Source of the DNA: Candidatus Methanophagales archaeon
GTDB taxonomy: Archaea; Halobacteriota; Syntropharchaeia; Alkanophagales; Methanospirareceae
Assembly: GCA_030612835.1 (NCBI GenBank)
Contig: JAUWND010000001.1
Coordinates: 1-52,145, forward strand
Reading direction: 5' to 3'
DNA length: 52,145 bases
The stretch's first letter is position 1. Every line of letters starts with the position of its first letter. The notes below the pieces were generated by a model, which did not search any database, had not been told where the DNA came from, and saw only the letters and a list, made by a program, of their open reading frames with translations. This document shows positions 211 to 44,751 of this stretch, in pieces. The position numbers and the translations under genes were made by a program.

Positions 211-243
211 TCTCACTCCTTGCAATGGGGCAACGCCAAAGGA

Positions 244-276
244 GAGCCGTATACGGGAAATCCGTACGTACGGTTC
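244..276 (+). ncRNA. Group II intron catalytic domain V
   Basis: GAGCCGTATACGGGAAATCCGTACGTACGGTTC. It has the same lower stem and AGC triad as the classical DV consensus GAGCCGUAU...ACGUACGGUUC, with a bulged hairpin and an A-rich loop. Confidence 0.85.
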
Positions 277-329
277 GATGAGGGGACGGAGGTCGTAAGA
301 CCTCCTCCTACTCTACTTGTAAAGTATAT

Positions 330-440: not shown

Positions 441-1796
441 CTAAAAGTCATCAAAATCAAATACAATAAAGCCTTCTTTTCTGAGTGTCTCTTTACCCGT
501 GATCTTTTTTGCAATTAAGCCAAAATGCTCTTTGCGTTTGTTGGTATTCCAGTCAACATATCCACTCTTCGTTCTCAGTTCCGCAAGGATGTCCAAAGCG
601 TCCTTAAACTTCAGGGTACGGTATTTGCATTCAAAGAATCCGATCTCTTTGCTTTCTTCGTCCAGGGTAACAATATCTATCTCATACTGATTCCTACCTT
701 TTTCATGTTTTGGGATTGCACCCCACTGACCACCGATTTTCGGGATTCGGCAGGGCAAAGAGTCCCGCTTTTCAATTAAAAATTCGCGACAGACCTTTTC
801 AAATACGTGTCCGAGATAGCGATTATACACGGCCTTAATTTCAGTAGCAGAAAAAATCGCCTCTTCTATAAATGTGATGTTCGGATTAATGAACCGGAAC
901 CAGAAATTGACGAAATTATCCTGGATATAATACCTGCTTCTTCTTGACTTCACATTATCTATCAATGGCGTCTTCCTTTCTACAAGCTCCACATCAATCA
1001 GGTTTCTAAGATATGGGCTTATATCAGTGCCTTTAGCGCCGATATAATCTCTAATTTCACCTAATTTCGTGTGGCCAGAAGCAATAGCACCCAATATCTT
1101 CTTATAGGTCTTCACATCACTAAACTCATATCTCATGAGGAAATCAATCTCCGATTTCAGAAAGGTGTCTACCTTCTTCAGCTCATCATCCAGCCATTCC
1201 CAGAAAGGATAATTTATCTTCGTAAGATAGTAGGGGATGCCATCAGAAAAACCGTATATTTCTATACGTTCTTCTGTTGTAGAACCCGGAAAAAAGTCGG
1301 TCAATTCCGCGAATTTCATAGCGCTCAATTTCAACTGCCCCGTTTTTCTGCCATACAAGGGTGCGTGATAGCTCAGAACTTGGCTTTCCATCATGGATAT
1401 GGACGAGCCAAGTAGTATTAATTTCGTCTTTGTATTTGCAAGAAGGACATCCACAATCCTCTGGAGTTCGGAAACAACTTTCGGGTTCTCTTTTATCAGG
1501 TTTGGAAACTCATCAATAATTATTATCTTGTCTTTCAAGAAATTGAATATGGCTTCCAGATCCGCCTCCACATATTTTATTCGGGGTTCCACCCGAGAAG
1601 CAACGTCTTTGAGCTTTTTGAGATTGTTCTCTTCGGTTGCAAGATAATAGATAAAATCTTTTCCTTTTACACTGGCAAGTGCAAGAGTTGTCTTTCCTAT
1701 TCTTCTTCGTCCGTAAATGACATATAAATCCAAATCGGGCCCGTTTAATTTCGCTTTGATTGCATCTAACTCTTTTTGCCTGTTTATGAATTTCAT
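441..1796 (-). CDS. AAA-type ATP-binding protein (archaeal ATPase family with DUF234-like C-terminus)
   Basis: 451-aa ORF with Walker A GRRRIGKTTL and Walker B IIIIDEF. The overall layout is typical of Arch_ATPase + DUF234 proteins. GGGGTGA lies just upstream of the ATG. Confidence 0.75.
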   Translation of the reverse strand: MKFINRQKELDAIKAKLNGPDLDLYVIYGRRRIGKTTLALASVKGKDFIYYLATEENNLKKLKDVASRVEPRIKYVEADLEAIFNFLKDKIIIIDEFPNLIKENPKVVSELQRIVDVLLANTKTKLILLGSSISMMESQVLSYHAPLYGRKTGQLKLSAMKFAELTDFFPGSTTEERIEIYGFSDGIPYYLTKINYPFWEWLDDELKKVDTFLKSEIDFLMRYEFSDVKTYKKILGAIASGHTKLGEIRDYIGAKGTDISPYLRNLIDVELVERKTPLIDNVKSRRSRYYIQDNFVNFWFRFINPNITFIEEAIFSATEIKAVYNRYLGHVFEKVCREFLIEKRDSLPCRIPKIGGQWGAIPKHEKGRNQYEIDIVTLDEESKEIGFFECKYRTLKFKDALDILAELRTKSGYVDWNTNKRKEHFGLIAKKITGKETLRKEGFIVFDFDDF

Positions 1797-2035: not shown

Positions 2036-3142
2036 TTAATGTGCATCCGCAATACCAATCGCCGCTTTTAGTTCTGCATCATCATCGTATTCTATATCTA
2101 ATTCATGCAGCACACTCACCCATTCTCTGTTCTTTAACAGCCAGTTGTAGTCATCTCTCAACCGTGAATTCTTCAAAATGCTATATGCAAGATTAACCTC
2201 AGGCGTTCGCTCCTTGTCTCGGTATGCAGCTCGGAGGATATTCTCCGCTTCTCGTTTAGCATCCGGAATCGAAGCGGCATCTATATTCAAAACATTGTAA
2301 AACGTTTTATCTCCTGTATATTTCTCCCAGTCGTCATGCTCATCTTTAATCTTTTCATATCTCTTCAGATCATCAAATCGTTCAAGCAATAGCAAATACA
2401 AATCGTCCTTACCCGTCCATAGCGCTCTCTTATCCTCTATCTCTTCCAATTCGTATTCATCAAGAGCTTCATTTATTATAAAATCGAGCATGTAATCATA
2501 TTCAAACCGCAACTGTGGGTTCTCCAGTATCTTACGAATCTCTAACTCCAGACTGCTCATGCTTTCTATTTCAGCACTTGATTTTACCTCCAGCACTTCC
2601 GTATCCTCATCAAGACCTAAAACATCATAAAAGGTAGGTGCGCCACGATGAAAGAGTTCAAGCCATGCACCTCGTTTTTCTAGTATATATTCCCAAGTAG
2701 CATACTCTTTCTCCTCTTTTAGCCAATCGTCATGATCGTCAATCATTTCACGCTTTATATTCGGTGTTAAACTCTGCGAAATCTTCAGGAAGAGCCGTAA
2801 AACAATATTATAAGTAGAACGCTTTTTCTCTGTACTCAACGCATCGTATGCCCGGTCAATCACTTCAGGTGGATAAACAGAACACTTCTTCTTCTGTTCA
2901 TATGCTTTTTTGAGATCATCCGTGGAAGCATCTTTTGCGACACAAAGGATGCAGTAATAGGTTGGCAGTCCTGATTTTAGGTCCTTTGTCCATTTTGGAT
3001 AAAGCTTCTCAAACCGCTCGATTTTATCATATATCTTATCTAACCGCGAAGGGTCCATGTATCGCGCGGGAACTTTCCAGTAAGGGTCGTCACATGAGTA
3101 GGGTTTCATCCATTCGTCAAATTCCCTCTTCTCCTCACCCAT
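2036..3142 (-). CDS. J-like protein with three degenerate J-domain repeats lacking HPD (not a canonical DnaJ)
   Basis: Three J-like blocks are present: TYYCILCVAKDASTDDLKKAYEQ...YPPEVIDRAYDALSTEKKRSTYN, TFYDVLGLDED...ILENPQLRFEYD, and TFYNVLNID...RTPEVNLAYSILKNSRLRDDYN. There is no HPD tripeptide, no G/F region and no CxxCxGxG zinc finger. The start is 5 nt after the hsp70 stop. Confidence 0.6.
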   Translation of the reverse strand: MGEEKREFDEWMKPYSCDDPYWKVPARYMDPSRLDKIYDKIERFEKLYPKWTKDLKSGLPTYYCILCVAKDASTDDLKKAYEQKKKCSVYPPEVIDRAYDALSTEKKRSTYNIVLRLFLKISQSLTPNIKREMIDDHDDWLKEEKEYATWEYILEKRGAWLELFHRGAPTFYDVLGLDEDTEVLEVKSSAEIESMSSLELEIRKILENPQLRFEYDYMLDFIINEALDEYELEEIEDKRALWTGKDDLYLLLLERFDDLKRYEKIKDEHDDWEKYTGDKTFYNVLNIDAASIPDAKREAENILRAAYRDKERTPEVNLAYSILKNSRLRDDYNWLLKNREWVSVLHELDIEYDDDAELKAAIGIADAH

Positions 3143-3147
3143 TTATC

Positions 3148-4887
3148 CTATTCCTTCGGTCTTAACTCCAGTCCCGAGCCGTCCTTAATACCAATTTCTT
3201 TTACCTGTTGCTTGTCCTGAAGCTCAATATCATTATAAAAAATGCACATTCCCTTAGTTAAAATGCCCTTTCTTCTGAGTTCGCGTTTTACATCCCGAAT
3301 ATGCATCTTTGGATTGAGATAGTAACTGAGGGCATCTTCTGTTTCCACATTCACAACGGTGACCTTTATTGAGTGTATCTTTAGCATTTTATCCATCCAT
3401 CTGTTCTTTTCCTCCTTTGACAGCCTTCCCCTTGCCTCCATTTTTACCGTTCGCTCATTGCCTGAATCATGGTCCTTTGCTGTTACATTTAATATACCAA
3501 ATTCCGCTCCTACCTCGAATGCAACATCAATTTTTGACTCATGCATCGGTTTTGGCTCTATTGAAATAAAGAACTCGCCCAGAAATCCTTTCTCTTCCGG
3601 AGAGATGCTTTCGCCCTGGTAAGCACTTATTTCTACCTCGTCCATAAAGTCCCGTGGATTTGTAAATCCCTTTGTCCTATTGATTGGTATCTTCGTGTTC
3701 CGCGTAATGATCTTTGCGACGGTACCATCATAAGTCAGGACACCAAGCGAGCGAGAGAGGACGTCGCTTATTTCCACCGGTCTTCTTATTTTACCTGATC
3801 TCTCTTTTAGGTCTTCCTTCATGGCGGCAACAGCAGCACCAAGTGCAACTACTTCTATTGGGTTCACATCTCGTACAGGCTCTTTACCAAGAAATTTATG
3901 CACAAACTCCTGCACCGCGGGTATGTATGTGGTTCCACCCACTAAGAGTATATCATCTATGTCTTCCGGAGAAAGCGATGCATCGTCAAGTGCCTGCTCC
4001 ATCGGCTTTTTCGTCCGTGCAATGAAATCGGTGATCAATTCGTTAAATTCATGCCTTGAAAGCTCATAACTAAATGCTATTGGTGCTCCCCTTTTAGTGC
4101 CAGCATAAGGCAAATTGATGGTCGCGCTCTCTTTGCGTGATAGTTCTATCTTCACACGCTCAACTTCTTCCCTTAGCGACTGAAGTACAGTCCGATTCTT
4201 ATCTTTCTTCTTTTTCAAGTCTATTTTATGCTTCTCTTCTATTTTATCAAGCGCGAAATCCACGATCCTTGCATCTATATCATCGCCTCCTAAATGGTTA
4301 TCCCCGCTCGTTGCATCAACATCGAAAAAACCTCCACCAATTGTGAGTATCGAAACATCAAACGTGCCACCGCCGAAGTCATAGACGAGCACTCTTCGCT
4401 CTTCATCCGCACGGAACCCTAAAGCTAATGCGGCTGCCGTTGGTTCGTTTAATATTCCGCGCACGTTTAAGCCCGCAATCTCACCTGCATCCTTAACCGC
4501 CTGCCGCTGCGGGTCCATGAAATATGCGGGCACTGTTATTACAGCATCAGAAAATGAAGTTCCTATTTGCTTCTCCGTGTCTTGAACGAGTTTCTTTATT
4601 ATATGTGCACCTATGTATTCTGGTGGATAAGACTCATTGCCTATTTCTACCCGGTGATCAGTGCCCATATACCTCTTGATTGACTTCACGGTGCGCTCTG
4701 GACTTGCAATTATATTACGCTTTGCTATACTACCCACCGCCACAGTTCCGTCCTCTTTGAAATATACAACCGAAGGCGTCACACGCTCGCCCTCGCCATT
4801 CGCTATTATTGTTGGCTCATCCACCTCTATAAACGCCACCCCTGAATTGGTCGTACCAAAATCAATCCCGATTACCTCTTCTTGCAT
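3148..4887 (-). CDS. Hsp70/DnaK-family ATPase with the helical lid replaced by a C-terminal ubiquitin-like (beta-grasp) domain
   Basis: Hsp70 signatures IGIDFGTTNSGVA, VITVPAYF, NEPTAAALA, VYDFGGGTFDVS and LVGGTTYIP are present. The SBD-beta is recognisable (ITRNTKIP...AYQGE...GILNVTAKD). The ATG at 4887 is preceded by AGGTGATGG; the ORF-track start at 4908 is a GTG. Confidence 0.85.
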   Translation of the reverse strand: MQEEVIGIDFGTTNSGVAFIEVDEPTIIANGEGERVTPSVVYFKEDGTVAVGSIAKRNIIASPERTVKSIKRYMGTDHRVEIGNESYPPEYIGAHIIKKLVQDTEKQIGTSFSDAVITVPAYFMDPQRQAVKDAGEIAGLNVRGILNEPTAAALALGFRADEERRVLVYDFGGGTFDVSILTIGGGFFDVDATSGDNHLGGDDIDARIVDFALDKIEEKHKIDLKKKKDKNRTVLQSLREEVERVKIELSRKESATINLPYAGTKRGAPIAFSYELSRHEFNELITDFIARTKKPMEQALDDASLSPEDIDDILLVGGTTYIPAVQEFVHKFLGKEPVRDVNPIEVVALGAAVAAMKEDLKERSGKIRRPVEISDVLSRSLGVLTYDGTVAKIITRNTKIPINRTKGFTNPRDFMDEVEISAYQGESISPEEKGFLGEFFISIEPKPMHESKIDVAFEVGAEFGILNVTAKDHDSGNERTVKMEARGRLSKEEKNRWMDKMLKIHSIKVTVVNVETEDALSYYLNPKMHIRDVKRELRRKGILTKGMCIFYNDIELQDKQQVKEIGIKDGSGLELRPKE

Positions 4888-4898
4888 TCTACCATCAC

Positions 4899-5930
4899 CT
4901 ACAAGCACATTCCCATATCTTTCATCTGCAAATCATCCTCTCTTATTTCTTCCTGCCGCTCGGTATTTAACGATTCCTTTGTCCTCTTCAGTTCTTCTAT
5001 CTCTTTCAATAGGTTCTCTTTCTCTTCTAATAGCTCTTTGTAATATCTAGTCAATGCAATGTCCTCAATAACGGTTTTGTCTTTTTTTGTTTCCAGCTCA
5101 GTCAAAGACTCCTGAATGGTGCGTAATTGCCTTTTTAACTCTTTAACTTTGACATTCAAAACTTCTTTGTTCTGTTCCAATTCATGTACCCGCGATTCCT
5201 CAGCCTCTCTTCTTTTTACTGCTTCTTCAATCATCTTCTTTAATTCTTCCTCGCGAGCATCGAGTTCTTTTGCTGATCTCTGAAGCATTTCCTCGTTTTG
5301 GTTCAATTCCCGCTCCCTTATATCCAATTCCTCGAACCTGCGCCTGAACACCCTTGACTCAAAGCCTCTCAAAATTTTCGATAAAATACCTTTAGACTTT
5401 GCTTCCGCTTCTCCTGCTTCACCACCTCTGGAGATAACCACCTCAGCAGGTCTAATTAGCTCACCGTTTAGCGTATACCCCTTCCTCACCAGAGAGAGAA
5501 TGGTCTTATCAGGAAGAAAAGTATTTGACGTGGCTTCAATCGCGGTATGCAATTCGTCATTTAACCTATCGCCGGGTGATGGTGCAATGGGAGTTACACC
5601 TAATGAACTCAGCAATTGGTTATAAGTCATTTCCAGATTATTTCTCGTCCCGTCCAGCATCTTTTCTACAAGTTCAAAGCCGCTATCCTGGTTAGTATTA
5701 TAGCTGTCCATTGCGCGATCGAGCGAATCGGCAACGCTAAGCAGTCGTCTGGCTAATTCACCATGCACTTTGCCACTCACTGCTTCCTCTCGGTCATCAA
5801 CTCTTTTTTTATATCTCGTAAAGTCGGATTTCAGTTTCTGGCATCTCTCTTCTGCGGATTTTATTAATTCTTCTTTTTCTGCCAGTTCCACCTTTGGAAC
5901 CACTACTAATTCATTCTCTTCCATAGGCAT
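4899..5930 (-). CDS. grpE: GrpE-type nucleotide exchange factor with a ~165-aa C-terminal coiled-coil extension
   Basis: GrpE core: RYKKRVDDREE...LLSVADSLDRA...GVTPIAPSPGDRLNDELHTAIE...VRKGYTLNGELIRPAEVVIS. It is followed by an E/K/L-rich heptad-like region running to the C-terminus. Confidence 0.8.
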   Translation of the reverse strand: MPMEENELVVVPKVELAEKEELIKSAEERCQKLKSDFTRYKKRVDDREEAVSGKVHGELARRLLSVADSLDRAMDSYNTNQDSGFELVEKMLDGTRNNLEMTYNQLLSSLGVTPIAPSPGDRLNDELHTAIEATSNTFLPDKTILSLVRKGYTLNGELIRPAEVVISRGGEAGEAEAKSKGILSKILRGFESRVFRRRFEELDIRERELNQNEEMLQRSAKELDAREEELKKMIEEAVKRREAEESRVHELEQNKEVLNVKVKELKRQLRTIQESLTELETKKDKTVIEDIALTRYYKELLEEKENLLKEIEELKRTKESLNTERQEEIREDDLQMKDMGMCL

Positions 5931-34250: not shown

Positions 34251-37200
34251 ATGAAGTTAGCGGCAATAACATGGGGAAGTGATATGGCATTGCTCATTAA
34301 TGCCTGTAAAGAGCTTGGTGTGGCGTTAAACGTCTGGTCAACCTATGAGGTAGAGGATGCGAGGAAGCGAAAGGTGTGCATAAAATCCCTTGGAGAGGCG
34401 GACATCATTCTCTTACATCCCTCAAACGAGGCACATTGGGATGAGATAATCGATGGACTGGATAAAGGAGTCCCTACAATCTCTTTTGGACATGATTCTT
34501 CCTACTGGTCGCTTTCTAATGTCCCCTTAGATGTTGTTGCAACGGTCAATGCATACCACACATATGGCGAGGCAGGGAACATAACTAATATGGTACGATA
34601 CATAGGAAAAGAGGTTTTAGGTCTTGATTATAAATATGAGAACCCAAAAGAGTCGCTGTGGGAGGGCATATATCATCCGGATGCCGAAATCGCTTTCGAC
34701 TGCTTAGATGACTATTTCGCGTGGTATAAACCCAATCGCAAGCATAAGGTCGGTATTCTCTTCTTTCGTACTTATTGGGCGAGCAGAGACCTTGAACCCG
34801 TGAATGCTCTGATTCGCGAATTAGAAAACGAGTTTGATGTGATACCTGTCTTCAGCTATGGGATGGGCGATAAGGAATTAGGCGCCAAATCGAGCGGAGA
34901 AGTCATTGACGCTTTCTTTATGGACATAATTGATGCATTCATAAATCTTCAATCGGCATTTAATGCCGGAGACGAGGGTGGGACGGTACCAGCACTGAAG
35001 AAACTCGATGTACCGGTATTCCACCCCGTTATGCCATACCATGCGACAGAAGAGGAATGGAGAAACGATATAATGGGGTTAAGCAGCCTGGAAGTTGGCT
35101 GGAGTCTTGCGATGCCGGAATTAGAAGGCGTAATCGAACCGATAATAATAGGTGCATTAAAAAGAGATAGTGATAACGAATTCGAGCAGCATACACAGAT
35201 AGAAGAACGGGTGAAAAAGATTGCGCTCCGGGTGAAGAACTGGATAGAGCTGAAAGATAAACCAAAATCAGACAGAAAAGTGGCATTTATCCTACATAAT
35301 AATCCATGTGCAAGCGTTGAAGCAACAGTAGGCGGGGCTGCGCATCTTGATGCCCTGGAAAGTGCCGCGAGGATATTGAGGAGAATGAAAGAGGCGGGCT
35401 ATTCTATCGAGCCACCGGAAGGTGGTAAAGCGCTTATAGAGACGATTATGTCCCGAAAGGCGATTTCTGAGTTCCGATGGACTACGATAGATGAAATTGT
35501 AAATAAAGGCGGGGCACTCGCAATGATAGATAAAGCAGAATATGAAAAGTGGTTTGATACACTCGCCCAAGAAGTGAAGGAAAGAACATGTGAAGCATGG
35601 GGAAATCCTCCTGGTGAGGCGAAGGATGGTGTCCCCGCCGCAATGGTTTATGATAATAAGATCGTGGTAACAGGCGTAAATTATGGAAATGCCGTTGTTT
35701 GCGTGCAGCCGAAGCGAGGATGCGCGGGTTCACGATGTGACGGGCAGGTATGCAAGGTTTTACACGACCCGGAAGTGCCGCCACCGCATCAATATCTCGC
35801 CACCTACCAGTACTTGGAAAATACCTTCGGCGCAGATGTGATTGTCCATGTAGGAACGCATGGCAACCTGGAGTTTTTGCCCGGCAAATCGGTCGCGCTC
35901 TCGGAGAGCTGCTACCCTGATATTGCAATAGGGAATTTGCCTCATCTGTATATCTACAATTCTGATAATCCTCCGGAAGGGACAATAGCAAAGAGGAGGT
36001 GTTATGCAACGCTCGTTGACCATATGCAGACAGTTATGACCGAAAGTGGCTTGTATGGCGATTTAAAAGGTCTTGAAGACAATATTGCAGAATATAACAA
36101 GGTTAAATCATCCGATAAGGCAAGAGCGCATGCGTTAGAGCACATAATTGTTGATTTGATAAGGAAGACGAAACTGTCAGAGGAGATAAAGCTTGATAAA
36201 AGGTTAGAGGATGGGTATTCATTTGCGGGAGTAATAGAACTTGCACACAGCGCTATCACTCGCATATACAACACGCAGATTCCTGATGGCATGCATATAT
36301 TCGGCGAAGTTCCCGGAGGTGGTAAGAAGGTCGAGTTAATCAATTCGATACTGAAACATGATTCAGAGCTAAGAATACTGATTTTTGGGCTTCTGGGACT
36401 CGATATAGCGCCATCCGAAGCGGAAAGCGAGCTTTTAGCTAAGGTGGATGGCTTTGCGAAGGAGTTTATTTCTGCCTTCTTATCAGAAGAGGAACCTCTT
36501 GAAGCAGCGAAGCGGATATTTGGGGGCGAATTTAAGCGGGAAAAGACAGAAAAGCTATATTCGATGTGGGAAAAGGTAATGGATATTTCTTCAAGGATAG
36601 TGGCATCGGACGAGATGGGTAGTTTGTTTCATGGCTTTGATGCAGGATACATCGAGCCGGGACCTTCGGGGCTCATAACAAGAGGAAAGCCCGAGATACT
36701 ACCCACAGGCAGGAACTTTTATTCTCTTGACCCGTTTAAGATCCCAACAAGAGCTGCCTGGGAGATCGGTAAGCGACTTGCAGATGGAGTGATCGGGAAA
36801 TACGAGGCGGAGAACGGAAAGCCGCCTGAGAACATTGCTATGTACTGGACGGCATCAGACATCATGTGGGCAGATGGCGAGCAACTAGCACAGATATTGT
36901 ATTTAGTCGGCGTGGAGCCAGTTTGGAAAGGCGGAAAGGTAAATGGATACAGGATAATGCCATTAGAAGAACTTGGTCGCCCGAGGATAGATGTAACAAT
37001 AAGAGTGAGTGGAATCACGAGAGATTGCTTTTACAATTGCATCGAACTCGTAGATGAGGCAATAGAGGAAGTTGCTATGCTTGACGAACCGATAGAAGAG
37101 AACTATGTGAGAAAACATGCATTGGACACGGAGAAGAAGAATAGAACAGAAAATGAGACAGAATATGCACATATATTCGGAAGTAAGCCGGGCACGTATG

Positions 37201-37988
37201 GAAACGGCGTGAATTTAGCGGTCTATGCATCTGCGTGGAAGGAGGATAAAGACCTGTCAGATGTGTTTGTGCATTGGAGCAGATATGCATACGGGAAGAG
37301 ATTTTTTGGTGTCGAAGCGCAGGATACGCTCGTTGCGCAGCTTGGAACTGTTAACCTCACTTTCAATAAGACAGTTACAGATGAATACGATCTGTTGGGC
37401 TGCTGTTGCTATTTCGGGACTCATGGCGGTCTAACAACTGTGGCGAAGGAGATTTCCGGGAATGATGTGCACGCATATTATGGTGATACGAGGGACCGGG
37501 ACAAAATAGAAGTACGGAGCCTTGCAGACGAGGTGAGAAGGGTTGTCCGGTCGAAGTTGCTGAATCCGAAATGGATAGCTGGAATGAAGCGTCATGGCTA
37601 CAAAGGTGCTGGTGACATATCAAAGCGGATAGGAAGGGTTTACGGCTGGGAAGCGACCACGCAAGAGGTAGATGATTGGATATTCGATGATATTGCAAGG
37701 ACCTTCGTATTGGATACGGAGATGAGGGAGTTCTTTGAGCAGAACAACCCCTGGGCGTTGGAAGAGGTCGGAAGAAGATTGTTAGAGGCTTATGAACGTG
37801 GGCTATGGGATGCAGATGATGAAGTAATAAAAGGATTGAAGAGCGCATACCTCGAGATGGAAGGGTGGATAGAAGAGAAGATGGGCGATGTGAAAGGCGA
37901 TTTCCAGGGTGGTGCGATAGATGTGATGCCAATAGAGGATTTTAAAGTATTGAATGAAAATGTGAAAGAGATACAAAAGGGTGAATAG
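34251..37988 (+). CDS. cobN: CobN/BchH-family large chelatase subunit (class I, ATP-dependent chelatase)
   Basis: The 1245-aa ORF is CobN-like over its whole length, for example HVGTHGNLEFLPGK, YIYNSDNPPEGTIAKRR, LLPTGRNFYSLDP and RVSGITRD. Confidence 0.85.
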   Translation: MKLAAITWGSDMALLINACKELGVALNVWSTYEVEDARKRKVCIKSLGEADIILLHPSNEAHWDEIIDGLDKGVPTISFGHDSSYWSLSNVPLDVVATVNAYHTYGEAGNITNMVRYIGKEVLGLDYKYENPKESLWEGIYHPDAEIAFDCLDDYFAWYKPNRKHKVGILFFRTYWASRDLEPVNALIRELENEFDVIPVFSYGMGDKELGAKSSGEVIDAFFMDIIDAFINLQSAFNAGDEGGTVPALKKLDVPVFHPVMPYHATEEEWRNDIMGLSSLEVGWSLAMPELEGVIEPIIIGALKRDSDNEFEQHTQIEERVKKIALRVKNWIELKDKPKSDRKVAFILHNNPCASVEATVGGAAHLDALESAARILRRMKEAGYSIEPPEGGKALIETIMSRKAISEFRWTTIDEIVNKGGALAMIDKAEYEKWFDTLAQEVKERTCEAWGNPPGEAKDGVPAAMVYDNKIVVTGVNYGNAVVCVQPKRGCAGSRCDGQVCKVLHDPEVPPPHQYLATYQYLENTFGADVIVHVGTHGNLEFLPGKSVALSESCYPDIAIGNLPHLYIYNSDNPPEGTIAKRRCYATLVDHMQTVMTESGLYGDLKGLEDNIAEYNKVKSSDKARAHALEHIIVDLIRKTKLSEEIKLDKRLEDGYSFAGVIELAHSAITRIYNTQIPDGMHIFGEVPGGGKKVELINSILKHDSELRILIFGLLGLDIAPSEAESELLAKVDGFAKEFISAFLSEEEPLEAAKRIFGGEFKREKTEKLYSMWEKVMDISSRIVASDEMGSLFHGFDAGYIEPGPSGLITRGKPEILPTGRNFYSLDPFKIPTRAAWEIGKRLADGVIGKYEAENGKPPENIAMYWTASDIMWADGEQLAQILYLVGVEPVWKGGKVNGYRIMPLEELGRPRIDVTIRVSGITRDCFYNCIELVDEAIEEVAMLDEPIEENYVRKHALDTEKKNRTENETEYAHIFGSKPGTYGNGVNLAVYASAWKEDKDLSDVFVHWSRYAYGKRFFGVEAQDTLVAQLGTVNLTFNKTVTDEYDLLGCCCYFGTHGGLTTVAKEISGNDVHAYYGDTRDRDKIEVRSLADEVRRVVRSKLLNPKWIAGMKRHGYKGAGDISKRIGRVYGWEATTQEVDDWIFDDIARTFVLDTEMREFFEQNNPWALEEVGRRLLEAYERGLWDADDEVIKGLKSAYLEMEGWIEEKMGDVKGDFQGGAIDVMPIEDFKVLNENVKEIQKGE

Positions 37989-37995
37989 GAATAAG

Positions 37996-38026
37996 ACCAC
38001 GAGATTACACAAGATTACACAGAGAG
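37996..38026 (+). repeat. R1 repeat copy just downstream of cobN
   Basis: ACCACGAGATTACACAAGATTACACAGAGAG. Confidence 0.75.
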
Positions 38027-38186
38027 AGAAAACGAAAGTATCTTAATGGGAGTCCAGCTATTCCTTTATCTGGTGATAAAAAAGATACATTGCTCGTTAG
38101 GGGTGAAACCAGATGAAAATTGAAGAACGATTTACGGGGAGGGAGAAGGGAAAAAGAAGGTTTTGAATTCGTCATTGGTATCAGAT

Positions 38187-39040
38187 ATGTTAGTTTTACT
38201 TCTTTTGATGGTTTTTGTGCTCCTTGCAACTCTTTCAGCAGCGGCAGAACCGGGAGCAGTATGGATCAATGCGCCTTAATATGTAGAGGAAGAAGGAACT
38301 TTTGATTCAAACGTTGTGGTTGTTACCGCTGTTAGGGCTGGACGCTTGAATGAGGCGACAATACCCGTAGGGATGTGGAAGTTAATGGGTAAAAATACAA
38401 TCAGAGTGCTTCCTGACGTTCCAGGGCTTAAGTGGCTGTCGGCGTATATCTCTGGAAAAGCTCGCAGTGCATAGTTGAAGATAATGTCTGTGAGGGATGT
38501 TCCCATGGAATTTACCTGGGTAATTCGTCTGAGAACATCGTGCGGGACAACATCTGCAATAACGGCACTAAAGCCAGACCCTTGTTCCTGGACGGAGACG
38601 GTATACACCTCGACTACTCGGCGGATAATAATCTAACTGTGAACAACACATGCTGCTGGAACGAAGACGAGGGCATTGACGTATGGACTAGTTCTAATAA
38701 CACCATAAAGAGGAATGAAATCTGTGAGAATAAAGAAGGTGGTGTTGATTTGATCTGCTCCTCAAATACAAAAATATACCTCAACAACTTCGTGAACAAT
38801 GCTGGAAGTAAAGACAGGGATTCCAATATCTGGAACTCAACATCAAAAATAACATACACTTACAAGGGCAATACCTACACCAATTATTTAGGCAACTACT
38901 GGAGCGAATACAACGGAAGCGATGCCGACAACGATGGACTAGGCGATACTCCTTATCGCATAGATTCAGATAAAGACAATTATCAGCTGATGGAATCCTG
39001 GGAAAAGTACGTTATGCTTTATGGGAAATATAAATCATAA
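38187..39040 (+). pseudogene. NosD-like parallel beta-helix surface protein, disrupted (premature TAA after the signal peptide plus a frameshift)
   Basis: The signal peptide MLVLLLLMVFVLLATLSAAAEPGAVWINAP ends in TAA at 38277. Beta-helix repeats resume in other frames (GVYLWKSSQCIVEDNVCEGCSHGIYLGNSSENIVRDNICNN...IDVWTSSNNTIKRNEICEN...DADNDGLGDTPY). Confidence 0.55.
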
Positions 39041-39081
39041 AATAAGTGTGAAATGTTATAGCTAAAAAGCATTACAATAAT

Positions 39082-39352
39082 ATGATGGAGATCATATATA
39101 CTTCGCTGATATACACCCTTTACTGGATGTCAAGAGTTATCCTGATCATAGCAATAGGTATATTTGCGACGAGTTTCGCGGTTAACATCGGGCTAATGCG
39201 GAAATTTGACCGGTTGATTAATACCTTTATGTACAACTAGAAACTACAAAGGTGGCAGGGTAATTAATGGTTTTCACCGATTCCTGTATGTGATGGGAAT
39301 ACATGAAAGTCGAGAATGAGGAAACATGAAAGAATTCGAGAATTGCAATTGA
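39082..39352 (+). pseudogene. Remnants of a second Gate-domain gene (first 52 codons) and a second radical SAM gene (promoter-proximal 25 nt + 8 codons)
   Basis: MMEIIYTSLIYTLYWMSRVILIIAIGIFATSFAVNIGLMRKF... parallels the N-terminus of the 31107 gene. Separately, 39301-39351 matches 30094-30145 almost base for base (ACATGAA.GTCGAGAATGAG..AACATGAA...TTCGAGAATTGCAA). Confidence 0.7.
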
Positions 39353-39463
39353 AAATCAAACAATACAGAAAAAAGTTTTATCAAATAAATATCGAAAAGA
39401 TTATATGGCGTCAATGTTAATATGTTATGTTAAATAGTCACAAATAAAAGAGGTGGATAACAA

Positions 39464-41569
39464 ATGACTCACCATGTTAGACGGGCGATACTGCCTTTTA
39501 CTGCAATTGTAGGGCAAGATACGATGAAGAATGCGCTTATTTTGAATGCCATTAACCCCCGTATAGGCGGAGTACTTATCAGAGGCGAGAAAGGAACTGC
39601 GAAATCCACCGCTGTTCGTGCTCTCGCAGAACTGTTACCAAAAATCGAAATGGTTAATGGCTGTACGTTCAATTGCAATCCTTCTGATACGCGTGAGAGG
39701 GGCGACGTCTGCTATGCCAAAAGAACGAACGGAGAAGATCTAAAAGTGACGAAGCGAAGGATGTGGGTCGTAGACCTCCCTCTCGGTGCTACAGAAGACC
39801 GGGTCGTTGGCTCAATAGATGTGGAAAAGGCGATAAAAGGCGGGATAAAGGCGCTGGAGCCCGGTATATTGGCTGCTGCAAATAGGGGTATTCTTTATAT
39901 TGACGAGGTAAATCTTTTAGATGATCACGTTGCCGATGTCATTCTGGATTCGGCTGCGATGTCAATAAACGTGGTTGAGCGAGAGGGTGTCTCTATCTCT
40001 CACCCCTCTAAGTTCATTCTGGTAGGTACAATGAACCCGGAGGAAGGCGAGCTTAGACCACAATTATTAGATCGTTTTGGGCTGCAAGCAAGTGTAGCGA
40101 GTATAGATGATGCCGATATGCGGGTAGAAATAGTGAAACAGGTGGAAAGTTTTGAAAGAGACCCGGAAGAGTTCAAGGAACGATTCGAGGGGAAGCAAAA
40201 AGAGTTACGTGATAAAATAGCGCATGCGAAACAGATAGTTAATGAGGTTGCAATTAGCGATGATTTACTGAAATTAACCGCAGAAACATGCATTAAACTC
40301 GGTGTAAGAACACATAGGGCTGAAATCGTTATAACAAGAGCGGCAAAAACTATTGCTGCTTTCGATAGCCGGAAAAAAGTTACCTTCGAGGATATAAAAG
40401 AGGCAATGGAATTAGCTCTTCCACATAGAATGCGTAGAAAACCCTTTGAATCTCCTAGTTTGGATAACAAGAAACTCGATGAGATGATGCAGGACACAAA
40501 GAAAGAGCATGAAGAGGAGATGAAGGAGAATACGCAACAGCAACAGAAACAGAAACAGAAACAGCAAAAGAAAGAGAAGGAAGAGCAAAAACAGCAGCAT
40601 GAACATGAGCAACCCGATAAGAATCCAGAAGGTCAAGATGACAAGGACGATGTAAGCGAATCACAAAACGAATCAGTTTTCAATATTGGCGACCCGATTG
40701 ATACAAGGGCAGTGCGGCAAAAGCAGAAGAAAGACAAGACATATCGCAGGAAGACTTCTGGGAGAAGGATCCCTACGCTCTCGCTTCGCAATAACGGGAA
40801 GTACATACGGCACGGTATCCCAAAGGGTAAAATAACGGATGTTGCGCTCGATGCGACGATACGAGCTGCGGCAGTATATCAGAAAGAGAGAGTGGTTGAT
40901 TCCGATTTAGCAGTAGTAATAAAAAGTCAGGATATTCGTGAGAAGATTCGGGTAGGAAAAATATCAACAGCAACGATGTTTGTTGTGGACGCATCAGGTT
41001 CAATGGGTGCGAATAGAAGAATGGAGAGCGCAAAAGGTGCTGTCCTTTCATTATTACTGGATTCGTATCAACAAAGAGATAAGGTCGGTATGGTCGCGTT
41101 TAAAGGTGACCAGGCAGATGTTTTGCTGCCTCTCTGTTCAAGCAGTGATTTGGCAGTTGAGAGGTTAAAGGAACTCCCGACAGGAGGGAGAACACCCTTG
41201 GCTGCCGGTTTGGAACAGGGCTTAAATCTCCTGATGGCGGAAAAGCATCGTGATGAAGAAGCGATACCAATTCTGCTGTTAATATCCGATGGTCGTGCAA
41301 ATGTGTCCGCAGGAGGGAGCAAAGAGCTAGAGAAGGAGCTGTTAGCGCTCGCAGAACAAGCACGAGCTAAAGGTATATATGTGATTGTCATTGATACAGA
41401 AATAGTCAGCGACTCGTTTATTCAGATGCAGCTTGGATATTGCAGAGCGATAGCAAGCTATTCCGGAGGTAAATATTACCCGATTGCGGATTTGACCTCG
41501 GGGGCAGTGCGGGATATTGTTATCCGTGAGCGAAACATGTTAAACGATCTGCAGACGGTTGTGGGCTGA
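39464..41569 (+). CDS. ChlI/ChlD-type chelatase subunit: AAA+ module, Q/K/E-rich linker and vWA domain in one polypeptide
   Basis: [38 protein letters not shown] (Walker A), LYIDEVNLL (Walker B), the linker [21 protein letters not shown], and the v[15 protein letters not shown]. Confidence 0.85.
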
Positions 41570-41681
41570 AAATGATGTGAAGGAGGTTATCTTATGGAGG
41601 AAGAGACAAGAAAATAAATTATTTTTTGGACACAGATTAACACTAAAACTTTTTAGAAAAAAAAGTTTTATCAAAAGCCAA

Positions 41682-41716
41682 TTTCTTTGGTAAAGCTTTC
41701 TTTTTTAAAGAAAGGT
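41682..41716 (+). repeat. R2 repeat copy (TTTCTTTGGTAAAGCTTTCTTT + CTTTCTTT/AAAGAAAG hairpin)
   Basis: The same 22-mer occurs at 49024-49045 (+) and 46757-46778 (-). Confidence 0.8.
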
Positions 41717-41754
41717 TTGTGTAAATCTGCGTCCTAAATAGGTAGAAGTCATAC

Positions 41755-41762
41755 TTTATATA
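41755..41762 (+). promoter_or_regulatory. TATA box (TTTATATA) inside a repeated promoter cassette; predicts a leaderless mRNA starting at the ATG at 41783
   Basis: The box centre is about 25 nt upstream of the ATG at 41783 (MRCKILTLLLFLATAAF..., a clean signal peptide). The ORF-track start at 41765 is only 3 nt from the box. Confidence 0.5.
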
Positions 41763-41782
41763 CAATGGAAAAACGAGGAAAG

Positions 41783-42373
41783 ATGAGATGTAAGATCCTG
41801 ACGTTATTGCTGTTCTTAGCAACTGCTGCTTTTCTTGCGGGCACGGTTACGGCGGTTCCAGGCACAGATGGAGTGACAAGGTCTGCGCCTGCTGATCCCG
41901 TTCCGGGTGCTGAATTCGATGTAAAGCTAACGATTAGTGGTGAACGTCCTCTGGTGGTTGGTATTGTGGAGACGATTCCAGAAGGCTTCGATTTTGTAAG
42001 TACATCTCATACCCCTGACCAGTACGATGTTTCCGGACAAAAAATTGTTTTCGCTGTGATAAACGAGACGGAGATACTATACAGGGTTAAGGCGTCTTCT
42101 TCGGGTTTGGACACATTTACCGGGACTTGGATTGATATGCTAAGCCAGAAGGAAGGAAGCATCGCAGGTACAGGTGGGATAGAAGAAGGCTCTACGCCAA
42201 CACCTACGCCTACGCCTACGCCAGCAACAACGCCAACACCAGAGGTGCCGGGCTTCGAGACTTTTTTCACCGCGCTAACGCTAGTAATTGCGGGTCTCTT
42301 TGTAGTTCTGTTGAGGAATAAAGAAGAGGGAGGTCGTGTAGAACGAGGAACGTATTATCTTATATATTGGTAA
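41783..42373 (+). CDS. Secreted surface protein with Thr/Pro linker and PGF-CTERM-type archaeosortase signal
   Basis: It has a signal peptide, one beta-rich domain, and then TPTPTPTPTPATTPTPEVPGFETFFTALTLVIAGLFVVLLRNK. Confidence 0.65.
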   Translation: MRCKILTLLLFLATAAFLAGTVTAVPGTDGVTRSAPADPVPGAEFDVKLTISGERPLVVGIVETIPEGFDFVSTSHTPDQYDVSGQKIVFAVINETEILYRVKASSSGLDTFTGTWIDMLSQKEGSIAGTGGIEEGSTPTPTPTPTPATTPTPEVPGFETFFTALTLVIAGLFVVLLRNKEEGGRVERGTYYLIYW

Positions 42374-43554
42374 TGGTGCTTATAGGATCTACGGTGCCGC
42401 TGACGGTTATGCCCGCAATTGCAACTGGGATACCCGGAGATGATGATGGAAATGACAACATAACAGAGAAAGAACTTGCGGGTAACATCCTTACCTATAT
42501 GCTGGGAGAGGGCGATCTCAGCCTGGATGAGTTACGGGATGCCGCGCACGTCTATGCATACTGGAATGGTGTGCCGAGGACGATAGTTGATACTGCAGAG
42601 AGAACGGTGACGATATACAAGCCTGTAAAGAAGATTGTCGTCCTTAGTTCTGATGGTGCTCGAGCGTTACGGATTTTGGGCGATGAAGATAAAGTTGTAG
42701 GAATTAGCGAAACTATCAAAAGGCATCCTTATTACTTCCCCGAGATGTCGCAGAAAAAAAGCGTTGGAACGTGGAAAGAAGTAGATTGGGAAGAAATTGT
42801 ATCCTTGGAGCCAGACTTACTAATAACCTACGCTACGGGTTCAATTAATGCGGATTTAGCGGCAGAGAAGCTTGATCCGTTTGGCATAACCGTAGTGGGC
42901 TTGTATTTTTATGTGACAGACGAATATGAACAGATATTTGACGAACTTGAGAAGCTTGCAATACTACTGGAGAAAGAAGAGGCGGCAGAGAAGTATCTCA
43001 AATGGCATGACGAGTATGAAGCACGTGTTCACGACTTTATTGCGGGCAAAGAAAAGCCAAACGTCTTTATGACCTATACCGGTGGTTCAATAGGAAAGAT
43101 TATGGAGATTGCAAGCTATGGTCCCGGAGCAATCGACTACACGTTATGTGAAAAGGCTGGAGGTAGACCCATTACTGAGGACTTTAGCACTAAATATCCT
43201 AAAGTAAGTGCTGAATGGGTTTTGACTGAGAACCCTGATATAATCATACTGAAGAGTGGTGATGTTTTTGGAGGCTGGGATAACGAAACCGAGCCCGCGG
43301 ACCTCATAGCCCAAATGATGGTAGGGAAAAATTGGGATGATATAAATGCAACCGAGAATAACAAAATATATGCTGTGCCCTGGTCTATTACAAACGGATT
43401 GGAGCACATCTATGGTGAGGTTCTCTTAGCGAAGATTTGCCAGCCGGAACTTGATATAGACCCAACAGAGGTCTATAAGGAGTTCCTTGAAGACTTCTTG
43501 AGAGTTGAGTATCCCGAAGGAAAGGTACTTGTGTACCCGCTTCTGGCAACTTAA
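42367..43554 (+). CDS. ABC substrate-binding protein, BtuF/FepB (Peripla_BP_2) type
   Basis: The fold pattern is KKIVVLSSDGARALRILG...PDLLITY...NPDIIIL...IYAVPW. It is followed by a FecCD permease and its ATPase. The start is uncertain because the signal peptide is weak. Confidence 0.7.
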   Translation: MVMVLIGSTVPLTVMPAIATGIPGDDDGNDNITEKELAGNILTYMLGEGDLSLDELRDAAHVYAYWNGVPRTIVDTAERTVTIYKPVKKIVVLSSDGARALRILGDEDKVVGISETIKRHPYYFPEMSQKKSVGTWKEVDWEEIVSLEPDLLITYATGSINADLAAEKLDPFGITVVGLYFYVTDEYEQIFDELEKLAILLEKEEAAEKYLKWHDEYEARVHDFIAGKEKPNVFMTYTGGSIGKIMEIASYGPGAIDYTLCEKAGGRPITEDFSTKYPKVSAEWVLTENPDIIILKSGDVFGGWDNETEPADLIAQMMVGKNWDDINATENNKIYAVPWSITNGLEHIYGEVLLAKICQPELDIDPTEVYKEFLEDFLRVEYPEGKVLVYPLLAT

Positions 43555-43616
43555 GCCAAACATAGCATCAAGACAATACCAGATACATACAAAGAAAGAG
43601 AGCGAAAAAATAATAC

Positions 43617-44747
43617 ATGCCAGAACTAAAAATAAATGGGAGAGAAAAGAGCGCGGAAATAAAAGCAGAATATAAAAAATTCATAGGACGGAAGATCCTG
43701 TTTATTTCCTCTACCTTTATATTGATTATTTTTATTGCAGGCATAGCGGCAACGCTTGGCCCTTATCAGATCTCGGTCATAGAAGTGTATTCAATAGTCT
43801 GGCATGGCATTCCAAAGATTCTACAAAATCTCGATTTTATCCTCTCTCACAGTTTTAAAGATTTTTCACTTACATATTTTACAAAAGAGGAGAGTATTAT
43901 TTGGTTCTTACGATTGCCACCAATTGTGATGGCGATTTTAGCAGGCGTAGGGCTTGGAATTGCCGGTACAACAATGCAAGGGGTGGTAAGAAATCCATTA
44001 GCAAGTCCTTACACTTTAGGGATAGCTTCTGCGGCGGGATTTGGTGCTGCCCTTGCCATCATTTTAGGTGCTGGCTTTGCCACAGGACAGAATATTATAA
44101 TAGCAGCCAACGCATTTTTTTTCGCTTTGTGCTCTTCTTTTATCATCTATGGCATATCGCGTTACAAAGGCGTGTCACCGGAGACGATGATTCTAGCAGG
44201 TATCGCATTGATGTATTTATTCTCTGCAATGACCGGCGTTTTACAATTTTTTGGAGAGGAAAAGGCGGTGGTTGGGGTTGTATACTGGATGTTTGGAAGT
44301 CTTGCAGGAGCAACATGGGATAAGCTGTTCGTTATGTTTATTGTCCTTATCATCTGTATTCCGCTAATCATGCTAAAATCGTGGGATTTGAACACACTGA
44401 GTACAGGAGATGAGCGTGCAAAAAGCCTCGGTGTTAACGTTAATCGGACAAGGGTTGTCTGTTTCATGCTCGCATCTTTAGTGACCGCAGGCGTTATTTG
44501 CTTCACGGGTACCATTGGATTCATAGGATTGGTTGCCCCCCACATGTGTCGCATGATTATCGGAGGAGATAACAGGTATTTAATTCCAGCTTCCGGGCTT
44601 TTCGGTGCTGTTGTTTTGCTTAGCGCCAGTATTCTTGCAAGACCTCCTATAGCACCCTCATTCATACCGGTAGGATTAGTCACTGCCTTCTTAGGTGTTC
44701 CCATGTTCCTTTACTTGATACTAAGAAAAAGAAAGGGGTATTGGTAA
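43617..44747 (+). CDS. FecCD/BtuC-family ABC permease
   Basis: 376 aa and polytopic, with RLPPIVMAILAGVGLGIAGTTMQGVVRNPLASPYTLGIASAA and FTGTIGFIGLVAPHMCR. Confidence 0.85.
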   Translation: MPELKINGREKSAEIKAEYKKFIGRKILFISSTFILIIFIAGIAATLGPYQISVIEVYSIVWHGIPKILQNLDFILSHSFKDFSLTYFTKEESIIWFLRLPPIVMAILAGVGLGIAGTTMQGVVRNPLASPYTLGIASAAGFGAALAIILGAGFATGQNIIIAANAFFFALCSSFIIYGISRYKGVSPETMILAGIALMYLFSAMTGVLQFFGEEKAVVGVVYWMFGSLAGATWDKLFVMFIVLIICIPLIMLKSWDLNTLSTGDERAKSLGVNVNRTRVVCFMLASLVTAGVICFTGTIGFIGLVAPHMCRMIIGGDNRYLIPASGLFGAVVLLSASILARPPIAPSFIPVGLVTAFLGVPMFLYLILRKRKGYW

Positions 44748-44751
44748 TACA

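Follow-up and report, generated by a model that had tools for sequence, protein, structure and literature searches.

Three near-universal features are regarded as the basis of Hsp70 function: the HPD motif of its J partner, a leucine-rich interdomain linker and a helical lid. The atypical, reduced-lid Hsp70s of the Ssz1-Zuotin and HscC-DjlC pairs are each matched with a dedicated and unusual J protein, J-like domains that have no HPD (Pam16/Tim16) act as structural or regulatory subunits, and DnaK with a truncated lid exchanges its clients faster. The HPD motif itself is reported for about 99% of J domains (PMC13580251). Here we analyse a trio of genes, grpE-hsp70-J, at positions 2036-5930 of a 52,145-nucleotide stretch of DNA (hereafter the window; contig JAUWND010000001.1) from a Candidatus Methanophagales archaeon, a member of the anaerobic methanotrophic archaea of group 1 (ANME-1). 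The trio is a natural, selected system that alters HPD, linker and lid together, yet keeps the catalytic core and its own exchange factor.

The trio shares with the canonical grpE-dnaK-dnaJ operon of bacteria, and with its archaeal form (our locus L028: GrpE of 239, DnaK of 622 and DnaJ of 378 residues, the last with HPD and CXXCXGXG motifs), the gene order and the tight packing, the nucleotide-binding domain (NBD) with every catalytic and allosteric residue, the β-part of the substrate-binding domain (SBD-β), the GrpE domain and, as the first of its J-like repeats, a J domain. Unlike the canonical operon, it has a ubiquitin-like domain (Ubl) in place of lid helices B-E, a linker of the form [IV]E[IV]SD and a 176-aa coiled-coil tail on GrpE; unlike canonical DnaJ, its J partner is built of three J-like domains and has no HPD, G/F region, zinc finger or DnaJ C-terminal domain; and unlike the canonical set, it falls below all NCBIfam equivalog cut-offs for DnaK, GrpE and DnaJ. 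Lid-truncated DnaK and BiP constructs (such as PDB 5obu, 7a4u and 9blu), which are among the top structural matches of the Hsp70, resemble it in having NBD, linker and SBD-β with little or no SBD-α; those, however, are laboratory truncations, whereas the truncation seen here is natural, conserved and capped by the Ubl. The pairing of an atypical Hsp70 with a dedicated J protein recalls Ssz1-Zuotin and HscC-DjlC, but Zuotin and DjlC keep their HPD, Ssz1 needs no ATP hydrolysis, HscC is not known to use GrpE, and none of them is known to carry a Ubl. With Pam16/Tim16 and other HPD-less J-like proteins the third protein shares a J fold without HPD; Pam16, however, pairs with a true J protein (Pam18), whereas the trio operon encodes no HPD-bearing J protein, and three J-like domains in one compact chain make an architecture different from that of Pam16. 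In eukaryotes, the Hsp70 exchange factor BAG-1 also attaches a Ubl to an Hsp70 machine and through it links Hsp70 to the proteasome (PMC7766421), but there it is the exchange factor, rather than Hsp70, that carries the Ubl, and BAG-1 and the trio share no homology except for the Ubl fold; by this analogy, a proteasome link of the archaeal protein is only a hypothesis. The Hsp70-like domains of CoCoNuT systems were also considered and are unrelated.

No description of an Hsp70 with a ubiquitin-like domain was found in the literature searched, including recent reviews of archaeal and non-canonical Hsp70s and papers on ANME archaea and Methanoperedens, and the public database names of family members are merely 'Hsp70 family protein', 'DnaK', 'DnaJ' or 'hypothetical'. 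The trio is apparently an undescribed Hsp70-GrpE-J system with three conserved departures from canon, and offers a ready test of which Hsp70 features are indispensable and of alternative modes of triggering or client release. The presence of a true ubiquitin-family domain inside an archaeal chaperone, with no ubiquitin-conjugation genes nearby at the loci seen, bears on the earliest use of ubiquitin-like domains as docking modules. The hosts are uncultured archaea that consume most seafloor methane and whose proteostasis is essentially unstudied.

Results

The three open reading frames (ORFs) of the trio span 2036-5930 on the minus strand of the window, as does every feature described below unless stated otherwise. 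In the direction of transcription these are a GrpE-like gene (5930-4899, 343 aa), an Hsp70 gene (4887-3148, 579 aa from an ATG that is also used by the orthologues) and a J-like gene (3142-2036, 368 aa). As read from the sequence, the grpE stop codon TAG (4901-4899) is followed after 11 nt by the hsp70 ATG (4887-4885), and the hsp70 TAG is followed after 5 nt (gataa) by the ATG of the J-like gene. The junction between grpE and hsp70 (4888-4900) contains AGGTGATGG (4900-4892), which could possibly act as a ribosome-binding sequence. The initial annotation of this DNA had pointed to the packing of a classical grpE-dnaK-dnaJ operon, with gaps of 11 and 5 nt, and had claimed that all three components nevertheless deviate from their classical versions. 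Both statements hold, and the deviations are kept across every orthologous locus examined. The closest relatives, with 94% protein identity, come from Methanophagales (ANME-1) metagenome-assembled genomes (MAGs).

The second gene (3148-4887) encodes an Hsp70 in which a ubiquitin-like domain replaces the helical lid, as judged from Pfam HSP70, AlphaFold2 and Foldseek. The Pfam match (PF00012, E 3.6e-149) stops near residue 511 of the longer, 586-aa ORF, and the alignment to solved DnaK structures, among which the M. tuberculosis and Geobacillus proteins are best, covers residues 5-498 only. An AlphaFold2 model built on 34 family members (predicted local distance difference test, pLDDT, 83.9; predicted template-modelling score, pTM, 0.79) matches as a whole the structures of DnaK, BiP and Hsc70 in Foldseek (E about 1e-53 to 6e-59), with the smallest root-mean-square deviation (r.m.s.d.) against ATP-type docked states. 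The protein scores below the NCBIfam DnaK equivalog cut-offs (NF001413, 527.5 bits versus 648; TIGR02350, 519.1 versus 822.55). An exact-sequence search of public assemblies gave no match for this Hsp70.

To number residues we used an E. coli DnaK sequence identical to that of PDB entries, and conservation was assessed over the 34 family members. The catalytic residues D8, K70, E171, D194, T199 and D201 and the allosteric residues P143, D148, R151, K155, D326 and P419 (E. coli numbering) are all invariant or nearly so. The NBD extends from aa 1 to about 357 (3817-4887). The substrate-binding β-basket (3424-3759) aligns to DnaK SBD-β, and in the family alignment the pocket positions equivalent to F426, V436, I438, I401, L411, I472 and V474 are still hydrophobic. 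The retention of NBD and SBD-β proposed initially is therefore supported by Pfam, alignment, AlphaFold2 model and residue conservation alike. The linker had also been listed as kept: it is present (3760-3786, RPVEISDV where the canonical sequence is DVLLLDV), but its sequence is non-canonical. Throughout the family [IV]E[IV]SD replaces the hydrophobic VLLLD typical of Hsp70/DnaK, so that an aspartate (the invariant equivalent of D393) and two alternate hydrophobic positions are kept and two of the three leucines are gone.

One position at the J interface is variable. In E. coli DnaK, R167 contacts the aspartate of HPD (structure 5NRO). Its equivalent, residue 144 of the Hsp70 (4456-4458), is Gly in the window. 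It is Arg in 21 members; by lineage, it is Arg in the proteins of Methanoperedens, Altiarchaeales, Thermoplasmatota and the Hodarchaeales MAG, and Gly or Ala in the branch formed by ANME-1 and ANME-2c, where the J interface has evidently drifted further.

Past the β-basket, the AlphaFold2 model has one helix (residues 491-502) followed by a β-β-α-β-3(10)-β succession at 505-577. The helix corresponds to a remnant of lid helix A (LSKEEKNRWMDKML, 3379-3423), which aligns to the start of the DnaK lid (GLSKEDIDRMI). Helix A alone of the helical lid (SBD-α, helices A-E) is thus present, and the β-grasp domain follows. The initial description of the protein as 'lid-less' was slightly overstated, since helix A is retained, but beyond that helix the β-grasp domain does take the place of the lid.

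In the orthologue of ANME-1 GoMg1 (L010, 6487-6489; also L021) a single in-frame TAG (GFEEEE*RRILVYDF) falls within a variable loop; gene callers report two separate genes there. The L010 and L021 assemblies may share one sample, and a pseudogene, an assembly error or recoding are all possible. Frameshifts are found in the Hsp70-Ubl genes of L015 and L019.

The C-terminal domain (aa 504-577, 3157-3378, ending in LELRPKE) had been noted as a β-grasp-like domain of ~75 aa at the lid position, and both the secondary structure predicted by AlphaFold2, which is that of a β-grasp, and a profile match to ubiquitin bear this out. On the single sequence, Pfam ubiquitin (PF00240) scores 23.8 bits (E 3.7e-5), just under its cut-off of 25.4; the same Pfam family is precomputed for several other members. 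A profile made from the last ~77 residues of 24 family members matches single PDB ubiquitin chains at E about 1e-6 and polyubiquitin once per repeat. As far as profile and model can tell, the tail of the Hsp70 is a true ubiquitin-family domain. None of the 34 members (0/34) has a Gly-Gly Ubl end; the domain closes with LELR and 0-3 or more further residues. Because it never ends in Gly-Gly, the Ubl is not a conjugatable modifier. An exposed Gly-Gly and E1-like genes are the marks of conjugatable modifiers such as ubiquitin and the small archaeal modifier proteins (SAMPs), and neither is seen here: no E1- or E2-like gene was found in any of the neighbourhoods examined, which come from loci of several lineages.

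The third protein (368 aa, 2036-3142) was characterised by AlphaFold2, Foldseek and hhalign as a triple J-like protein without HPD. Its model is all-helical (pLDDT 89.4, pTM 0.80), and the high pTM indicates one compact body and not beads on a string. Foldseek returned local J-domain matches (probability about 1, r.m.s.d. 2.3-3 Å over about 60 residues), including J-like subunits of ciliate complex I, and no whole-chain relative. We found 68 homologues of the protein. Pfam DnaJ (PF00226) reports a single domain above threshold, at residues 61-112, compressed from 63 to 52 positions. It lies in domain 1 (aa 58-124, 2771-2971; Pfam DnaJ and hhalign), which has SVYPP at the place of the HPD loop and which, as repeat 1 alone, matches Pfam DnaJ with E 1.6e-7 (31.7-32.9 bits versus a cut-off of 27.8). 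Among 20 aligned orthologues Y90 is invariant and P91 nearly so. Domain 2 (aa 166-228, 2459-2647) is the most degenerate, detected by hhalign with no Pfam match, and domain 3 (aa 276-349, 2096-2317), with the family signature ERTPEVNLAYSILKN, is marginal in Pfam (E 0.037). Using hhalign on repeat sub-alignments from 21 orthologues, the repeats matched each other with probabilities of 97.3% (1 versus 2), 96.9% (2 versus 3) and 88.9% (1 versus 3), and the E. coli J domain with 96.7%, 71% and 89.8% for repeats 1, 2 and 3, respectively. In every repeat, the HPD loop and the first part of helix III fall into a gap of 11-16 residues relative to the E. coli domain.

The four-helix J fold is thus recognised by Pfam (repeat 1), Foldseek and hhalign, and HPD is missing from the J-like protein of the window, from 20/20 aligned orthologues and from the Altiarchaeales and Thermoplasmatota partners. 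The protein has no CxxCxGxG motif, no G/F-rich stretch (at most 17% G+F in any 30-aa window) and no Pfam match to DnaJ_C or DnaJ_CXXCXGXG, and reaches 20.3 bits against the 377 of TIGR02349. The three J-like repeats without HPD, G/F region or zinc finger that were first read from the translation are therefore confirmed by hhalign, Pfam and motif scan. A misreading, with a normal lid and an HPD-bearing J domain, had been named as a way in which the idea of a non-canonical trio might fail; profile searches and structure prediction showed neither.

Domain 3 is the most conserved stretch of the protein, with R304, Y307, T313, V316, N317, A319, Y320, L323, K324 and N325 invariant. In the aligned orthologues its signature is ERT[PE]EVNLAYS[VI]LKN, the invariant Thr of which falls at the tip of the helix II-III hairpin, the usual place of HPD. 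A broader signature, [EK][RK]T.[EQK]VN.AY, is kept in the partners from Methanoperedens, Altiarchaeales, Thermoplasmatota and locus L023.

The first gene (4899-5930) encodes a GrpE-like nucleotide exchange factor with a C-terminal coiled-coil tail. Pfam GrpE (PF01025) matches it with E 3.1e-28 and 99 bits (gathering score 25.8), and the GrpE domain proper (aa 10-167, 5430-5903) covers profile positions 14-164 of 165 and ends in the motif RPAEVVISRG. Its best score against the NCBIfam equivalogs, 58.4 bits versus 137, leaves it below all of their cut-offs. The protein does not end at the β-domain: a heptad-rich tail follows (4902-5429, ending in DMGMCL). First estimated at ~165 aa, the tail measures 176 aa and does have heptad periodicity. 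Its strongest hydrophobic periodicities are 3.52 and 7.04 residues, E, L, K and R make up 56% of it, its final 146 residues hold one Pro or Gly in total, and residues 196-332 of the protein give SMC-like matches.

The tail aligns across the ANME-1 and ANME-2c orthologues, where it has a terminal motif of the F.EMPC type. The length of GrpE varies with lineage: 182 aa in Thermoplasmatota (no tail), 254 in Methanoperedens (short tail), 341-426 in ANME-1, and, with the tail, 430 aa in Altiarchaeales and 485-524 aa in ANME-2c. On this sequence comparison, the tail is real, but was added in certain lineages and does not define the module. A short hydrophobic motif is conserved at the GrpE C-termini (4902-4920 in the window; L004-L020); it often has a Cys as its last residue or close to its end (F.EMPC, EMLC, DMGMCL) and, from its sequence, looks like a docking peptide.

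The distribution of the module was surveyed by tblastn and ORF analysis at 22 loci. GrpE, Hsp70-Ubl and J-like genes are direct neighbours in an unchanged order, overlapping or separated by short gaps, in ANME-1 representatives, ANME-2c (Methanogaster) and Methanoperedens, and the trio is present in every ANME-1 species representative reached by a scan of reference genomes. Where the flanking sequence is long enough, a GrpE orthologue almost always immediately precedes Hsp70-Ubl; in Altiarchaeales it lies downstream. A Thermoplasmatota contig has the same trio, with a GrpE of normal length and a triple J-like protein of 482 aa that carries ERTPKVNLAYSVLKN and no HPD. In Altiarchaeales SM1 the same three components are rearranged, and of the J-like domains the last alone is present, joined to a zinc-ribbon/HEAT-like protein. 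The initial annotation had suggested checking whether Hsp70-Ubl, long GrpE and triple J-like genes co-occur as a conserved module; across these loci Hsp70-Ubl, GrpE and J-like genes do, but the long GrpE tail does not extend to Thermoplasmatota.

Among at least 120 full-length relatives of the Hsp70, the 120 listed (54-93% identity) all have the Ubl (120/120). When one representative was taken per 50%-identity cluster, the Ubl was found in 5 of the best 150, including one from Thermoplasmatota and one from a Hodarchaeales MAG; past these, scores fall from 490 to about 420-440 bits, and the proteins are lid-bearing or multi-domain. Of the Methanosarcina DnaKs listed, 0/120 have a Ubl. In a rough neighbour-joining tree the Ubl-bearing Hsp70s form one clade, and Methanosarcina DnaK stands apart from it with a Firmicute DnaK. 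The clade (44-93% identity) is distributed patchily over four phylum-level lineages, Halobacteriota, Altiarchaeota, Thermoplasmatota and an Asgard MAG. The ratio of non-synonymous to synonymous substitution rates (dN/dS) is 0.10-0.41 across all three genes, indicating purifying selection. Since the deviations are conserved across loci and the genes are under purifying selection, the trio is a genuine Hsp70 module in its own right, neither a misreading nor an operon in decay.

Two of the outlying loci have further features. In Altiarchaeales SM1, the J partner (L002, 8030-9253) is a 407-aa protein with an N-terminal zinc-ribbon-like CxxC...CxxC, a faint HEAT-repeat match and the J-like signature at its C-terminus; the Hsp70-Ubl gene there is flanked by genes for two small proteins without matches (186 and 133 aa), with GrpE downstream. 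A 3.5-kb contig of the Hodarchaeales MAG (L026) carries a lone, divergent Hsp70-Ubl (44% identity, Ubl E 5e-4), with no GrpE or J-like gene visible and no long flanking ORFs in the forward frames inspected; the attribution of this protein to Asgard archaea rests on a short binned contig.

Discussion

We propose, with a probability of about one half, that the trio is a single operon for a self-contained, divergent Hsp70 machine derived from a grpE-dnaK-dnaJ ancestor, most likely a specialised second system that has spread by gene transfer. That it is a remodelled descendant of the grpE-dnaK-dnaJ operon is the best reading of the identical gene order; that it is a specialised second system spread by transfer is most likely, and the least secure step of the proposal. 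Because catalytic and allosteric residues, peptide pocket and a dedicated GrpE are retained, we envisage a real ATP-driven client cycle and not a dead scaffold. The Hsp70 would still bind ATP and, as its residues suggest, hydrolyse it, its β-basket would still hold hydrophobic peptide segments, and the adjacent GrpE would reset it through nucleotide exchange. The triple J-like protein would serve as a dedicated, obligate partner, probably docking via domain 3, with the hairpin tip (ERT-P/E-E), located where HPD usually meets the Hsp70 linker region, contacting the region of NBD and linker; the change of the linker from VLLLD to [IV]E[IV]SD may have co-evolved with this tip. The Ubl would not clamp clients but serve for docking or capping. 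Since only helix A of the lid remains, clients should exchange faster than on DnaK; their retention may be briefer, or they may be passed on to a Ubl-recognising partner. The coiled-coil tail that GrpE carries in ANME-1, ANME-2c and Altiarchaeales could be an addition of these lineages that serves in tethering or oligomerisation.

A more far-reaching version, in which the Hsp70 cycle is independent of HPD, the remodelled J-like tip and the less hydrophobic, co-evolved linker act as the trigger, and the Ubl hands clients to an unfoldase or protease that recognises ubiquitin, such as PAN, Cdc48 or the proteasome, seems doubtful. If true, archaea would have their own version of the connection from Hsp70 to degradation known in eukaryotes.

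Several points weigh against the proposed specialised machine. The docking of J-like domain 3 and any contact made by the Ubl are inferences from sequence only, and hhalign places the 'ERTPE' tip at the start of helix III and not at HPD itself. The Hsp70-J interface, judged by the R167 equivalent that varies between lineages, is not uniform across the Ubl-bearing family. The Hsp70 gene is interrupted by a stop or frameshift in three GTDB loci, through either dispensability or assembly error. In close relatives one flank of the trio is syntenic and made of housekeeping genes (for a SpoU-like methyltransferase, TruA, a membrane protein, two CBS proteins and ProB), as expected of a core gene, and the trio could be the sole Hsp70 system of ANME-1.

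This last possibility, that the trio is the only, housekeeping Hsp70-GrpE-J set of ANME-1 and its relatives, redesigned in these lineages and with no special task, is the alternative that survives best, although we consider it rather unlikely. It agrees with the chromosomal, syntenic position beside housekeeping genes, with the presence of the trio in each ANME-1 species representative that could be scanned, with strong conservation under purifying selection, and with intact catalytic, allosteric and peptide-pocket residues. An Hsp20-like gene adjoins the trio in one relative, and no second Hsp70 was found in the 52-kb window. Methanococcus vannielii is reported to lack DnaJ and to have no DnaK and GrpE other than 'atypical, extremely divergent' ones (Petitjean et al. 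2012, PMC3564930), which is the pattern that the module would produce in a standard search; these proteins may belong to the same family. However, one compact clade scattered over Halobacteriota, Altiarchaeota, Thermoplasmatota and an Asgard MAG looks like the transfer of an add-on, and its patchy spread fits a module of that kind. Members of the clade also occur in lineages related to Methanosarcinales, in all surveyed genomes of which the three canonical genes were reported (Petitjean et al. 2012, PMC3564930), and this favours a second system. Lid-bearing DnaKs are annotated in Thermoplasmatota MAGs. Finally, in the part of an ANME-1c MAG gene table available to us (PMC9539880, supplementary file 3), MW690_000620 is annotated as a 617-aa DnaK (K04043), with a thermosome gene on one side, a CfbE-like Mur ligase on the other and no GrpE or DnaJ in that part; it hints at another Hsp70 in ANME-1, perhaps a different Hsp70 type of thermophilic ANME-1.

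The nearest lid-bearing representatives come from bacteria, from an unplaced euryarchaeal MAG with a canonical operon and from a Thermoplasmatota MAG, and none is from a genome known to have the trio. A Methanosarcina DnaK probe, 91-98% identical to real Methanosarcina DnaKs, gave best 120 matches that, as listed, were all from Methanosarcina. The supplementary tables of Chadwick 2022 and Laso-Perez 2023 (ANME) have no DnaK, GrpE or DnaJ entries. Taken as a whole, we would put the odds of a specialised second system over a sole housekeeping set at roughly five to three.

The trio might, alternatively, form a structural or regulatory complex, in which Hsp70-Ubl and the J-like protein are a stable heterodimer and ATP is bound without client-responsive turnover, comparable to Ssz1-Zuotin, the ribosome-associated complex of yeast, or to Pam16 paired with Pam18. 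Every member has a J partner without HPD, the linker is down two of its three leucines, the J-like protein is predicted to be a rigid, compact three-domain body (pTM 0.80) and not a flexible adaptor, and HPD-less J-like domains are known in structural roles, with the J-like subunits of ciliate complex I appearing in the Foldseek list. We nevertheless regard such a complex as improbable: the residues for ATP hydrolysis and allostery are all invariant, unlike those of Ssz1, and a dedicated GrpE is kept in every lineage. As a dedicated GrpE only makes sense if ADP needs exchange, ATP is presumably turned over.

Genomic neighbourhood

On the side of the J-like gene, the trio is followed by a gene with ATPase_2 and DUF234 domains (441-1796, minus strand; Pfam), which matches the PADLOC candidate defence family PDC-S27 (E 1.9e-40), and by domain V/VI of a group II intron (242-316, plus strand; Rfam RF00029, 58.8 bits), the remainder of which would lie upstream, beyond the start of the window. 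Both neighbours had been noticed in the initial annotation and are indeed present, but the 'accessory neighbourhood' argument built on them fails, because they are not conserved neighbours and the other flank is housekeeping. Neither occurs at the loci of the closest relatives (L006, L007), and we interpret the ATPase, missing at the equivalent position there, as a strain-specific insertion beside the operon. Outside the trio, neighbours vary by lineage and are unrelated metabolic, translation and housekeeping genes. That the trio, along with ATPase and intron, is part of an island for mobility or defence was rejected as very improbable: the PDC-S27 match, the intron fragment 1.7 kb from the trio and a reverse transcriptase gene close to the trio at a further ANME-1 locus speak for it, but Hsp70 and the J-like protein have no PADLOC match and GrpE only a coiled-coil-level one to JetC (E 0.0077), ATPase and intron are missing from the closest relatives' loci, no copy of the trio was found on the viral contigs searched, and neighbours elsewhere are ordinary metabolic and translation genes. 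The locus with the reverse transcriptase gene is L021, and group II introns are seemingly common in ANME-1 on that account.

Further along, the plus strand of the window encodes at 34251-45531 a CobN-type chelatase (1245 aa), a ChlI/ChlD-like AAA+ subunit with a VWA domain (701 aa), a periplasmic binding protein and a FecCD permease, which together probably form a tetrapyrrole-cofactor cluster of metal-chelatase and uptake genes. Beside this CobN/chelatase cluster, the rest of the window holds genes for transporters, TiaS and an M50 protease.

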